Of a stretch of 41,778 nucleotides of DNA, positions 10,126-28,443 are shown in pieces (positions within the stretch are counted from its first letter, which is position 1; each line of letters opens with the position of its first letter). Source of the stretch: a virus. The position numbers and the translations under genes are program-made. The notes under the pieces were generated by a model. That model worked only from the letters and a program-made list of their open reading frames with translations. It was not told where the DNA came from and ran no database searches. Where the stretch lies: UHGV virus genome UHGV-0176688; one strand, 5' to 3'.

Positions 10126-10598
10126 AAACTTATTACCCATCTCTGAATTGTTACCCGTCTTCCTATCCAGAATTATCCGGGAAGCTGTTAGCTCTATTAG
10201 CTAAAGCACCTACGGAATGGTTTAAGCCAGTCGTTATCAATCCACACTTCCTGGATTACGGATCTGTTCGCACTCGTAACGAACTCAAAAACCTACTGGC
10301 GCATGGATTCATTCGACACCGTTCCGGTAAAGGCTATCAGTTAGCGATTGCGCCAGAAGAGGCCGTGCGGCTATTCGCATATCGTGACAGCCAGACAAAA
10401 GCTCGGGTAATAGCTCAAATACTTCATAACGGCAGCACCTATGCCCGCCAGTTTGGCGGCGACACGTCGCAGTTCTTGCGGGCGGTGCGATCGCTGGAGG
10501 AGCAAGGAATTATTGAAAGTTCCTGTCTTCCTGTTCCTACCGTTCCACATATCAAACGTCGGGTTTACACCTTCACGCAGAGAGCTAAAAAACAATGA
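10122..10598 (+). CDS. Hypothetical protein
   Basis: 158-aa ORF overlapping both neighbours by 4 nt. Confidence 0.55.
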   Translation: MKTYYPSLNCYPSSYPELSGKLLALLAKAPTEWFKPVVINPHFLDYGSVRTRNELKNLLAHGFIRHRSGKGYQLAIAPEEAVRLFAYRDSQTKARVIAQILHNGSTYARQFGGDTSQFLRAVRSLEEQGIIESSCLPVPTVPHIKRRVYTFTQRAKKQ

Positions 10599-11089
10599 TT
10601 TACGTAAAAGTGAAACGCCTACATCCGGCAGCAAAACTTCCAGCTTATGCCACCTCCGGATCGGCGGCGATGGATTTTGAGGCTGTTGAAATAAAACCAT
10701 GCGTCGATAGCAATGGTGCAATTTCCTCAAGCTGGTGGGTGTATACCGGACTGGCTATGGAGATCCCGCCCGGCTGGTGTCTGAAACTCTATCCGCGATC
10801 CGGATTGGGCTGCAAAAAACATACTCGCCTGGCTAACTGCGTAGGAATTATCGACTCCGATTATCGCGGTGAAATCATGGCAAAACTGATTACTGATCCC
10901 GGCGGGGAAGGCGTTTGTCTCAAGCCTGGAATGGCTGTCATGCAAGGCATTTTTGAGCGTGTTGAACAAGTCTCACTAGTCGAGGTTGAGGAACTCAACG
11001 AAACGGAACGTGGTGCTGGTGGCTTTGGTAGCACATCGGAAGACCACTTTGAAATTAAGCGCACACCGCTTCAGTACGCAAAGTTTTAA
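10595..11089 (+). CDS. dut: dUTP diphosphatase (trimeric dUTPase)
   Basis: Motifs RSGLG, IIDSDYRGEI, GFGSTS. Confidence 0.9.
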   Translation: MIYVKVKRLHPAAKLPAYATSGSAAMDFEAVEIKPCVDSNGAISSSWWVYTGLAMEIPPGWCLKLYPRSGLGCKKHTRLANCVGIIDSDYRGEIMAKLITDPGGEGVCLKPGMAVMQGIFERVEQVSLVEVEELNETERGAGGFGSTSEDHFEIKRTPLQYAKF

Positions 11090-11103: not shown

Positions 11104-11781
11104 ATGAATTACATGGCAACGAAAGAGCTTTTTAAGTTCCTTCCCAAATACAAAGCTCACAAAAACGTTAGTGCATCGAAAATCAAAAATGTTGTTATTT
11201 TCGGAGTAACTGATGCCCCACTTTGGGGCTGCATTGAACTCGTTGAACCAAAAGGGGCAACAGTTTGTGTTGACGCAATGTTTTTACAAAAACACCGACC
11301 AAAAACTGGCGGGTATCTGATCGTTTATGAAAACGGTTATCTGTTCTATGCCCCGGAGAAACCATTTGAGGAATGCTATGGCTTGGTTAACGACGCCTCC
11401 GAAAATGGAACCACGGTCATCATTACGGATGACAACGGCGTGATGATTAATATTACCGGGAGCGTAACTATTTCTGCTGGTGGTACCACTACCCAGCAAG
11501 AGGAAATCGACCTTGAAGCAGCCGACTTTTCTGACGCGCTGATGTGGCTGAAGGATGGCAAGAAAGTTGCTCGACGCGGGTGGAACGGCGAAAACCAATT
11601 CTGCTGGCTGGTTCCTGAAGGACAGTACCCGGCACGAATGGAAGCCATTAAGGGATATTTCCCCTGCGACCTCGTTCCGTATGGTGCTTATTTCGCCTTA
11701 AAAAATGCACAAGGTGTAGTTGTTCCGTGGGTGCCTTCTGTAGGCGACCTGCTGGCATGTGACTGGTTTGTAGTGGAGTGA
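11104..11781 (+). CDS. Two-domain protein with C-terminal DUF2829 domain (Tad2-like fold candidate)
   Basis: FSDALMWLKDGKKVARRGWNGENQFCWL...GVVVPWVPSVGDLLACDWFVVE is a strong DUF2829 match by eye. Confidence 0.7.
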   Translation: MNYMATKELFKFLPKYKAHKNVSASKIKNVVIFGVTDAPLWGCIELVEPKGATVCVDAMFLQKHRPKTGGYLIVYENGYLFYAPEKPFEECYGLVNDASENGTTVIITDDNGVMINITGSVTISAGGTTTQQEEIDLEAADFSDALMWLKDGKKVARRGWNGENQFCWLVPEGQYPARMEAIKGYFPCDLVPYGAYFALKNAQGVVVPWVPSVGDLLACDWFVVE

Positions 11782-11787
11782 TTTGAC

Positions 11788-12564
11788 ATGGAAAGCACCA
11801 AAACAATTCAATACCGCTTGCGTAATGGCCTGCTGGTGGCTGTTAACGCCGACATGTCACTGCCGTTTGACACGATTGAACGCACTATCATGACGTATCT
11901 CGGCTTTAATGAAGAGCTGAATGAAGAGCATGGCGTAGCTATATGGAGTGATGCAGACAGCGGCGTTCGTCGTTACATCACCGCCAGGGGCAAAGACTAC
12001 TCTCTGGAAGAACTGTTTACCCTTGCGCAGTCTTTCGAATGTGTAGCATTAGACCTGTTTAATGATCCTGCTATAGCGCAACGACTTATACGCGAGCTTG
12101 GGCTATCCGTTACACCAATTATCTTTAAAAATGGCAGCCTGACTGGCACATGGCGCGTAGAACGCATCTCAAACTACCTTCCATATAACAGACAGTTAAA
12201 TGGAGTAATCTCCGGCGTTAATCAGCCCGTAGCGTGTGAAAATGTAAACCTGGTTGTCGCTGTTTTGGCAACCGCATGTCGTGTTATCGGTTTGGCTAAA
12301 CAGGCATTTATTCATTTCCCAAATGGTGCAGAAGGTAGCGCAGAGATTATCGCGTGTGATTTCGAATTTACCTGGATGCTACGCGAACATCTGGACCAAA
12401 CAGTATTCCGTGCCGAAGAACTGGATATGTATATCACGTCAACGATTCCAGACGATGTGCGAGCTGAAGCAATCGCTATAGCCAGGGCGAAATGCCGTGC
12501 GGCGATTGCAGAACGGGCCAAAGAAGAACAGTCCAATGATACAGCGGCAGAAGAGGTGAAATAA
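11788..12564 (+). CDS. Hypothetical protein
   Basis: 258-aa ORF ending at a hairpin terminator. Confidence 0.55.
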   Translation: MESTKTIQYRLRNGLLVAVNADMSLPFDTIERTIMTYLGFNEELNEEHGVAIWSDADSGVRRYITARGKDYSLEELFTLAQSFECVALDLFNDPAIAQRLIRELGLSVTPIIFKNGSLTGTWRVERISNYLPYNRQLNGVISGVNQPVACENVNLVVAVLATACRVIGLAKQAFIHFPNGAEGSAEIIACDFEFTWMLREHLDQTVFRAEELDMYITSTIPDDVRAEAIAIARAKCRAAIAERAKEEQSNDTAAEEVK

Positions 12565-12565
12565 C

Positions 12566-12598
12566 AAAAAGCCCGCTTGGTATGGCGGGCTTCTTTTC
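12566..12598. terminator. Bidirectional rho-independent terminator
   Basis: aaaaaGCCCGCttggtatgGCGGGCttctttt. Confidence 0.8.
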
Positions 12599-12794
12599 AA
12601 ATACTGGAAGCACTTTGTCTGCTACCAAGCATTCTCTGTTTAAGCACAACCATTTCCTGACGGCATAACACAGCAATAGCAGTCCTGGCGCCAATTTGCT
12701 TACCAATCAGGTATTGCTTTACCTCGCGGCGACTCACGCCATCAAGAAGCATCTTTAACGCTTCACGGGACAATTTGTTGTATTTGCGTGCCAT
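12597..12794 (-). CDS. Small HTH-like protein, hypothetical
   Basis: ATG at 12794 five nt after upstream stop; MARKYNKLSREALKMLLDGVSRREVKQYLIGKQIGARTAIAVL resembles a DNA-binding HTH; 3-prime end runs into terminator stem so uncertain. Confidence 0.3.
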   Translation of the reverse strand: MARKYNKLSREALKMLLDGVSRREVKQYLIGKQIGARTAIAVLCRQEMVVLKQRMLGSRQSASSI

Positions 12795-12798
12795 TAAT

Positions 12799-13074
12799 CT
12801 ACTCCGCAGAACCATACAATCTACGTAGCGTGGTAGCAGTAGATGCAGATATCGCCCTTAAAACCTCCTCCTTACTTACATCACTGCGGGAGAGGATTTC
12901 AGAAGGCGATATTTCCTTTAACGACTTTTGCTTCTCTTTGCAGTTCTCGACCAGTTCCGCAGGAATAACAAACCTGCTATCAATCGGCACAAGTTCATCA
13001 AGCGTTTGTTTGGGTACGTTAAACGTAGGATTCTTGAACACCGCAGATTCGGTTCTTAAGTTAATTTTCGACAT
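12799..13074 (-). CDS. Hypothetical protein carrying a Doc-tail-like C-terminus
   Basis: Ends TTLRRLYGSAE, mirroring doc ORF end [11 protein letters not shown]; about 26-bp imperfect direct repeat at nucleotide level. Confidence 0.4.
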   Translation of the reverse strand: MSKINLRTESAVFKNPTFNVPKQTLDELVPIDSRFVIPAELVENCKEKQKSLKEISPSEILSRSDVSKEEVLRAISASTATTLRRLYGSAE

Positions 13075-13093
13075 TGTTTCGTAACTCCACTAC

Positions 13094-13474
13094 TCAAGTC
13101 TTGGAACCATATAGTTCACGTAGCTTTTCTGCGACTGAAGATACGGCGATTTCACCAGTCGCAGCCCCTACAGTAAGGTCTGCCAGTTCAGGTGAATCAA
13201 ATACCTGCACCCCATTACGGCGTAGAAATAGCAGCGCACTGTTTAGCGCGGTACGCTTATTGGCATCATTGAATATATGCCCTCTCGCAGTAGCCACCAG
13301 GTAGGTTGCGGAGACTTCGAAAAGGTCGGTAATCTCTTCGTACACAACTCTGGCCTGGACTCTCCCGATAATGGCCTCTGCCCTACCCGGATCTGACATG
13401 CCAGGCAGGCCGCCGTAGCGGCTTATATTCGCATCATGAAGCGCAATAAGTTCTTCCGGTGATATATGCCTCAT
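13094..13474 (-). CDS. doc: Doc toxin (Fic/Doc family kinase)
   Basis: Near-identical to P1 Doc as recalled ([39 protein letters not shown]...); overlaps phd stop. Confidence 0.95.
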
Positions 13475-13701
13475 TATCGGTTAACCAGTTCCTTGTTGGT
13501 GGAGTCCAGGGTGTCAAACAGGGATGCAAATTCAGCATCCAGCGCTGCTTTTTTGTAGGCTTCGAAAGTAGCCTTGCTAACAATTACTGCTGGCTCACGG
13601 CCTCTGCGGGTGATTTCAACTTCTTCCCCGGCTTCAACATTGTTGAGCACTTCAGAAAGGTTGCCGCGCGCGGTACGGAAGTTAATGGATTGCATAAACA
13701 C
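13474..13701 (-). CDS. phd: Phd antitoxin
   Basis: [39 protein letters not shown] matches P1 Phd; directly upstream of doc. Confidence 0.9.
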
Positions 13702-13767
13702 CTCGTGTACTCGTTATGTGTACACAATTATAAACTTCACAGGCATAAAGCACCAGCACTTTGCAGC

Positions 13768-14157
13768 TTAAATCACCGGACAATCATCAAATTCCCCACT
13801 TCGGGCATCATTAATGACATGAGTGATCACACCAAACACAGCATTACTCCCCGTGCATCCATCGTCATCCACTGGTAACGCCTCTTTCTTCCCGGTGCTT
13901 AAATCCTCCAGGTGCTGGCGCGGATACTTCCTGTATCTTTTTATGCGATATTCACCTTCCATAGCGCAGACAAGTAGCGAACCATCAACCGGAGTAAGTG
14001 AGGAATCGACCACCAGCAAAGCACCCTGCAATATTCCCTCACGGTGATGGCTATCAGCTGCCCGCATGAAGTAGGTTGCTGATGGATGCCTGATTAGTTG
14101 CTGATCAAGAGAAATTCGGCTTTCAACATAATCCGCCGCAGGAGAAGGGAAGCCCAT
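13768..14157 (-). CDS. humD: HumD (UmuD-prime-like S24 peptidase-fold protein)
   Basis: GFPSPAADYVESRISLDQQLIRHPSATYF matches the UmuD core; LexA box upstream; humD-phd-doc synteny as in P1. Confidence 0.8.
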   Translation of the reverse strand: MGFPSPAADYVESRISLDQQLIRHPSATYFMRAADSHHREGILQGALLVVDSSLTPVDGSLLVCAMEGEYRIKRYRKYPRQHLEDLSTGKKEALPVDDDGCTGSNAVFGVITHVINDARSGEFDDCPVI

Positions 14158-28161: not shown

Positions 28162-28266
28162 AATACTGACTGTTGCGCCCTGGCATTATCGTGAGGTATA
28201 TTTCTACGGCACCTTAGAAAAACGGGTGCCGGGATTGGAACCCCGGATAATGCAAAAGGCGACACA

Positions 28267-28288
28267 GACGCCGAAAGCGTCTTTTTTT
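28267..28288 (+). terminator. Rho-independent terminator
   Basis: GACGCcgaaaGCGTC followed by TTTTTTT. Confidence 0.8.
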
Positions 28289-28385
28289 GTGTCATGCCAT
28301 CGCACAGCCATACGTAGCGTTTAGCTCAGAGATCAATGGTAGTGCTGGCTGGGCTGCCGAAAGGCAGGCCGGTTCCCTTTTGCGC

Positions 28386-28443
28386 CGGTAGTTCCAACCC
28401 AGTCAGTGCTACCGCCATTGAGATTGGAACCTCACGCGGTAGC
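28386..28443 (+). ncRNA. Candidate cis-regulatory RNA switch / c4-like antisense element upstream of icd-like RBS
   Basis: GTTCCAA (28391-28397) complements TTGGAAC (28424-28430); GCTACCGC (28408-28415) complements GCGGTAGC (28436-28443); CGGTAG also at 28387 giving alternative pairings; RBS AAAAGGAG follows. Confidence 0.35.

Follow-up and report, generated by a model that had tools for sequence, protein, structure and literature searches.

The closest described counterpart of the locus studied here is the phd-doc-pdcA operon of P1 (NC_005856). We analysed a window of 41,778 nucleotides, the whole stretch of UHGV virus genome UHGV-0176688, which sequence comparison identifies as a D6-like member of the P1/D6 group of phage-plasmids. 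The window carries the same genes as the P1 operon in the same order, and its Phd is identical. However, in P1 and D6 pdcA directly follows doc, whereas the window has an open reading frame of 91 codons (ORF91) between these genes. B-type doc alleles of D6-like plasmids (P0006; L017-L022) form a second point of comparison. Their tail belongs to the same class as that of the window doc (...VAEKLREL(Y/F)GS.., 57/66 nt), but in these plasmids doc is the last gene and a terminator follows it directly.

Two phage systems also resemble the arrangement in the window. The prophages e14 and phage 21 insert in the 3' end of icd and supply a diverged replacement end. As in icd, a heterologous 3' end, with mostly synonymous differences, keeps the window doc at full length, and the original end is displaced downstream. 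Unlike these prophages, the window has neither an integrase nor an att core and the inserted segment is only 298 nt long. Moreover, the displaced end of icd is a dead pseudo-end, whereas that of doc is the predicted C-terminus of a new ORF. The second system is the phage moron, which belongs with mosaic joints at gene boundaries in the concept of Hendrix and Juhala. A classical moron lies between genes and has its own promoter and terminator. ORF91 is likewise a small extra gene of foreign composition (GC content of its unique part 42%, vs 51% for doc) found at a module boundary in a minority of collinear genomes. Unlike a moron, it has no promoter or terminator of its own by consensus scan, and its joints lie inside coding sequence. 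We conclude that the arrangement is probably a mosaic recombination joint within the last 21 codons of doc, carried by a rare sub-lineage of P1-like and D6-like phage-plasmids.

Layout and distribution of the insertion

The coordinates of the locus are collected in Table 1. Doc and the 91-codon ORF are as the original prediction described them and, according to the ORF list and translations, have the C-termini it gave (for ORF91, ...TTLRRLYGSAE, the end of ...ASTATTLRRLYGSAE). It proposed that the 3' end of doc holds an insertion or a recombination junction, and this is borne out by alignment with P1 and D6, which contains one clean insertion with a net gain of 295 bp inside the last 21 codons. 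The inserted segment (12859-13156) spans 298 nt and separates nt 318 from nt 319 of a P1-type doc; the loss of one codon from the displaced tail accounts for the difference between the two lengths. The segment is made up of a B'-type tail of 63 nt, a spacer of 19 nt and 216 nt encoding codons 1-72 of ORF91.

Table 1. Features of the phd-doc-ORF91-pdcA locus, with positions in the window
Feature	Position	Strand	Basis or remark
humD	13768-14157	minus	gene upstream of phd
phd, antitoxin gene (73 aa), first gene of the operon	13474-13695	minus	PF02604 PhdYeFM_antitox, E=2.8e-13
doc (126 aa)	13094-13474	minus	ORF list and translation
doc body, nt 1-318, P1-like ('A')	13157-13474	minus	PF02661 Fic; TIGR01550 DOC_P1, E=8.7e-38; variable-site table
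heterologous doc tail, doc nt 319-381, class B'	13094-13156	minus	tail identities; pS/pN; B markers
doc-ORF91 spacer (19 nt), GGAG ribosome-binding site 10 nt before ATG	13075-13093	minus	read from the sequence
ORF91, chimeric orphan (91 aa)	12799-13074	minus	phrog_31462; annotated as WP_000036093.1, hypothetical protein
ORF91 unique 5' part, codons 1-72	12859-13074	minus	no homologue outside the cassette; GC content
displaced P1-type ('A') doc tail, last 19 codons of ORF91 and stop	12799-12858	minus	alignment with P1/D6 tail
pdcA (65 aa), D6-type 3' end	12597-12794	minus	phrog_3345, E=2.3e-42; pdcA annotation in P1 and D6
intrinsic terminator, bidirectional hairpin, closing the phd-doc-ORF91-pdcA unit	12566-12595	minus	hairpin prediction
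last 16 nt of pdcA plus terminator	12568-12611	minus	homologous to the end of B-type doc alleles without pdcA

The insert is rare. Among the 1,115 PLSDB plasmids that match the region, 10 carry it and about 1,103 have an empty site, recognised as two overlapping match pieces spanning 126 nt in the record. The cassette is present in 3 of 1,065 matching complete E. coli genomes, and in the other 1,062 doc leads directly to pdcA. With pdcA directly after doc in nearly all relatives, there is no conserved three-gene module, the arrangement that the original prediction had named as speaking against an insertion. None of the phage records in the collection searched contains the insert. On the D6-like backbone the cassette occurs in the window and in 4 plasmids with 99.8% identity to it; on the P1-like backbone it occurs in other plasmids, with pdcB and lpa downstream. 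The order doc(B')-ORF91-pdcA is found in all 9 copies from viral and metagenomic collections (3 IMG/VR contigs and 6 metagenome contigs). D6-type empty sites align to the window up to about position 12853.

A convergent isaA-like gene comes after the terminator at 12566-12595. Elsewhere in the window, a gene on the plus strand between a dUTPase gene (10595-11089) and the isaA-like gene encodes a 225-aa protein (11104-11781) with a C-terminal Tad2-like domain (Thoeris anti-defence 2, PF11195, E=7e-23) and no PADLOC match. The Rfam families C4 antisense RNA (RF01695, 76.7 bits) and, just upstream, isrK (RF01394, 62.5 bits) mark 28209-28419 (plus strand) as the P1-type immI immunity region. Four tRNA genes, also found with Rfam, lie within 776-2422 on the plus strand (776-849, 858-941, 949-1021 and 2350-2422).

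A heterologous tail on Doc and a displaced tail in ORF91

A search for Doc relatives separates two natural tail classes. The 'A' tail (...ADTLRRLYGSAE) is found in P1, D6 and most plasmids. The 'B' tail family includes the clusters P0006, P0021, P0024 and P0030; the P0006 tail (...AEKLRELFGSNI) is present in 222 contigs, and at least 76 further plasmids have natural B-type tails. The window doc combines the two classes. Its product remains full length, with a body about 95% identical to P1 Doc and 6 changes in the last 20 residues. The switch is sharp: P1-type markers extend to nt 318 and the first B marker is nt 321. The gene also aligns end to end, tail included, with the B locus L017 (94%). 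Differences between the window tail and the A tail of P1 are mainly synonymous (pS 0.65, pN 0.22), and this tail pS of 0.65 stands in contrast to a gene-body pS of about 0.1 among the cassette alleles. Such a pattern points to an old divergence of the two tails under constraint at the protein level.

Window Doc scores 129 bits against TIGR01550 DOC_P1 (cut-off 38.65) and 36.7 bits against PF02661 (cut-off 24), and phmmer matches it to Doc in PDB entries 3K33, 3DD7 and 3KH2 (E=4e-74). The catalytic loop, H66-x-F-x-D-A-N-K-R, is intact and unchanged as HIFNDANKR. The Phd protein is 100% identical in the window, P1, D6 and the B-type locus L017. Because Phd is the same across both tail classes, there is no sign of altered neutralisation, and nothing in these sequences suggests that a B-type tail needs a changed antitoxin. 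B-tailed Doc would still be neutralised by the unchanged Phd. The idea in the original prediction that the variant C-terminus could alter Phd interaction or toxin stability is speculative, and the identical Phd and the natural occurrence of B-type tails speak against any need for adaptation.

The second tail copy lies at the end of ORF91. The original prediction held that this end matches the C-terminal tail of Doc, and this is correct: P1 Doc (NC_005856) ends ...SSVADTLRRLYGSAE, as does D6 Doc. It had also described a direct repeat of about 20 of 26 nt between the two tails. The repeat is real but weaker than claimed, with about 17 of the 26 quoted positions agreeing; our repeat family D1 comprises 17 of 21 nt (81%) at a distance of 295 nt. 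Over the whole tail the two copies share 33 of 66 nt, and their longest common run is 8 nt (TATGGTTC). Within the doc tail, a 36-nt core agrees with the ORF91 tail at 21 positions, a score that an unrelated site in the window equals, and the direct nucleotide match between the tails, taken alone, is not above chance. The homology is nonetheless secure, for both copies have close relatives in other loci. At 12799-12858, the ORF91 tail agrees with the P1/D6 doc tail at 51 of 63 nt; it has lost one codon, and 31 of its last 32 nt are identical, whereas the doc tail (13094-13156) agrees with the natural B allele of L017 at 57 of 66 nt and with the P1 tail at 44 of 66. At the protein level, the Smith-Waterman score of ORF91 against P1 Doc (57) was reached by none of 2000 shuffles.

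In ORF91 the displaced A tail is read in its original frame as residues 73-91. Its 5' half is altered (ISVSSVADT to ISASTATT) and its 3' half is perfectly conserved. The last codons carry the GGAG ribosome-binding site of pdcA together with an upstream ATG that corresponds to the pdcA start annotated in P1, and this may explain why the 3' half has been conserved. The displaced tail and the start of pdcA reproduce the doc/pdcA junction of P1 exactly.

Origin and spread of the joint

How did the second tail arise? The original prediction considered a target duplication, and this part did not hold. No short identical direct repeats flank the insert; the copies are about 60 nt long, about 50% identical (33/66), and each matches a different natural doc allele. 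The insert ends bear no terminal inverted repeats, and no recombinase or integrase gene lies in or adjoining the 298-nt segment, whose sole ORF is the 91-aa orphan without a family match. Since the doc-proximal copy is a heterologous replacement end from a separate natural allele class, a target-site duplication of the transposon type is ruled out.

A mobile cassette could also use the doc tail as an attachment site through transposition or site-specific recombination, either duplicating its target or bringing a replacement 3' end in the manner of integrases directed at gene ends. Both tail copies cover exactly doc nt 319-381 and the insertion site is always identical, as would be expected of an attachment site. 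Moreover, modules in other contexts also have their boundary at the doc stop or tail, and the B 'NI' alleles described below contain a second junction inside the last codons. However, a single type of cassette is present at the site, its 298 nt hold no recombinase, terminal inverted repeats or attC-like structure, and the two copies, about 50% identical, are not identical repeats. Flanks that are 95% identical account for the spread between backbones, and no similar sequence occurs elsewhere in plasmids, phages, E. coli genomes, species genomes or metagenomes. We therefore consider a mobile cassette very improbable.

We favour recombination between two different doc loci, rather than transposition, as the event that made the joint. 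It would have yielded two products, a chimeric doc with a B-class 3' end and a chimeric ORF91, with the resident P1-type tail pushed downstream and read in frame as the C-terminal 19 residues of the new 91-aa protein. In doc, the B tract starts at nt 319-321, the position where the displaced tail copy also starts (nt 319), and this coincidence seems to fit a single precise insertion better than a history of two or more recombination steps. Its later passage between backbones may have relied on homologous recombination within the flanks (phd-doc and pdcA), which are conserved and about 95% identical.

The recombination partner is hypothetical, as no donor locus containing the 5' part of ORF91 was found. 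For this part, neither blastn in distant mode (plasmids, phages and E. coli genomes) nor pattern scanning (species genomes, IMG/VR and metagenomes) returned anything but the same cassette at the same site. By tblastn, phages contain no relatives beyond the cassette, and the unique part has no match elsewhere within the window. A scan of genome contigs with the C-terminal half of Doc gave only distant Doc relatives among the matches listed. The first 12 nt of the spacer are common to the sequence that follows a diverged B'-type doc in two contigs, L023 and L024.

These two contigs (Logan SRR8835203 and SRR6156173; L023 positions 2835-3477) encode diverged phd-doc, 88% identical, with a B'-type tail ending ...GTNT. 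Their doc is called as 144 aa and overlaps phd. Both contigs break 42 nt after doc, a shared break point that suggests a repeat or insertion sequence there, and no locus in plasmids, E. coli genomes or IMG/VR displays what follows this type of doc.

A second junction is apparent at the end of pdcA. Positions 12568-12611 of the window match the doc ends of L017 (3366-3409) and L025 (285-331) with 86% identity over 44 nt. The L025 doc end consists of an L016-type B' tail up to TTCCAATA, followed by the TTTGA of pdcA and the terminator. Because the 3' region of P1 pdcA matches the D6-type pdcA end codon for codon and the two align to the same stop, the shared end piece is native to pdcA. Doc alleles ending ...GSNI occur in 76 D6-like plasmids without pdcA, with the junction at TTCCA(A/G)TA. 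The pdcA 3' end is the apparent source of their last two codons and terminator, and these B 'NI' alleles resemble what deletion would leave of a doc(B')...pdcA arrangement such as that in the window.

Could the cassette arrangement then be ancestral, and the common P1/D6 arrangement derived from it by deletion? The resemblance of the 76 B 'NI' alleles to deletion derivatives of a window-type arrangement would be in keeping with this. However, the P1 and D6 tails are intact and identical to each other (66/66), whereas the copy in the cassette lacks one codon and has about 7 changes. Deletion between copies that are 50% identical should yield a chimeric tail, of which we saw none, and empty sites outnumber occupied ones by 1,103 to 10. 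We regard an ancestral cassette as very improbable, and an insertion into the P1/D6-type arrangement remains our preferred reading.

At least three endings of Doc are seen at the joint, A (GSAE), B' (GSKT, GSNT, GTNT) and B (GSNI), a variety which suggests that the extreme C-terminus has been rewritten repeatedly at a module boundary. In unrelated contexts, phd-doc also occurs as a two-gene module that ends at the doc stop. A further possibility is that recombination recurs at a joint formed by the last ~20 codons of doc, that a new gene was born there by capturing a displaced toxin helix, and that ORF91, bearing this Doc helix and co-expressed with Phd and Doc, might modulate the addiction module, for example by competing for the contact made by the Doc tail. 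We view this proposal as unlikely.

According to the P1 record (NC_005856; L001 1687-2365), a block from the doc stop to the phd promoter is 98% identical to a conjugative plasmid sequence that lies upstream of the EcoDXXI hsd locus. This block ends at the doc stop, which is thus a module boundary in another replicon too.

ORF91 as a probable gene

ORF91 belongs to PHROG 31462, a family of unknown function (E=6.6e-62), and is otherwise an orphan. No homologue outside the cassette was found among 5.8 G clustered proteins by word-indexed search or among 1.84 billion representative proteins by a full HMMER scan, and Pfam, NCBIfam and PADLOC contain no matching family. PdcA likewise has no PADLOC or NCBIfam match, and a literature search found nothing on the cassette or on the function of pdcA. 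A partial duplication of doc or pdcA was rejected as a source of ORF91: BLASTP produced no alignment, and the Smith-Waterman comparison with pdcA gave p=0.26.

Is ORF91 a gene, or a non-coding recombination scar whose frame is open by chance? An orphan without homologues could be such a scar, and the AlphaFold2 model has low confidence (pLDDT 62, pTM 0.25), with the first 38 residues disordered. In addition, PGAP left ORF91 unannotated in NZ_CP091679, and nearly all differences between the displaced tail and Doc are nonsynonymous. However, the frame is intact in 5 distinct alleles that differ by up to 8% in protein. In a test limited to the 24 variable sites of these 5 alleles, 12 are synonymous and 12 nonsynonymous, against a neutral expectation of 23% synonymous (binomial p=0.003), and pairwise pN/pS among the alleles is 0.15-0.39. 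The GGAG ribosome-binding site of ORF91 at -10 is conserved in the most divergent allele too. Finally, the E. albertii plasmid NZ_CP043264 (L004, 3001-3500) has kept ORF91 and pdcA after losing phd and half of doc, its first ~200 nt; the small gene thus persists there in the absence of the addiction module. A chance reading frame is therefore unlikely, and ORF91 is probably a real, young, chimeric gene. An inverse-autotransporter gene lies near the ORF91 locus in the E. albertii plasmid.

We also weighed whether ORF91 might be a decayed, frame-fused second phd-doc module, with a Phd-like N-terminus, Doc residues 1-16 and a Doc tail, that originated from a tandem toxin-antitoxin pair. Residues 1-72 of ORF91 are collinear with Phd and then Doc(1-106), with a Smith-Waterman score of 44 (p=0.004 by shuffling). 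MSKINLRTE aligns with MQSINFRTA, ISPSEILSRSD is the second aligned stretch of ORF91, and the 72-residue unique part is about as long as Phd (73 aa). However, neither the profile HMM of Phd (p=0.3) nor that of Doc (p=0.84) gives a signal, ORF91 has no Pfam match at E<=1, PF02604 included, and in DNA similarity to phd-doc it comes only 8th among 537 control segments. The same protein score was reached by 2 of 151 unrelated segments of real proteins, and the scenario calls for a foreign module of great divergence and for several deletions. These comparisons leave a phd-doc relic unsupported, and we give it very little credence.

If ORF91 is the chimeric gene that we propose, its expression would follow that of the module. 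A consensus scan found no promoter-like site in 12400-13900 and no terminator-like site between doc and pdcA. Because no such site separates ORF91 from doc or pdcA, the gene would be co-transcribed with phd, doc and pdcA from the phd promoter, and it would be translated from its own ribosome-binding site. The AlphaFold2 model has helices at residues 39-53, 57-63 and 68-87, and the last of these is, at low confidence, the former C-terminal helix of Doc. From this model, we take ORF91 to be a small accessory protein that retains the former Doc helix as its final helix.

Altogether, the cassette exemplifies the ordinary mosaicism of phage-plasmids, here with a chimeric orphan gene, and represents neither a new mechanism nor a new kind of system. 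For the annotation of these replicons, it accounts for the 'hypothetical protein' WP_000036093.1 (phrog_31462) that recurs in P1-like plasmids of E. coli and E. albertii. For the toxin-antitoxin field, the natural tail variants of Doc offer a means of asking what the C-terminal helix contributes to stability and Phd binding. More broadly, the locus suggests that a well-studied toxin gene can withstand wholesale exchange of its 3' end, with one antitoxin serving different tails, and that a recombination joint can yield a predicted chimeric orphan gene under apparent purifying selection.
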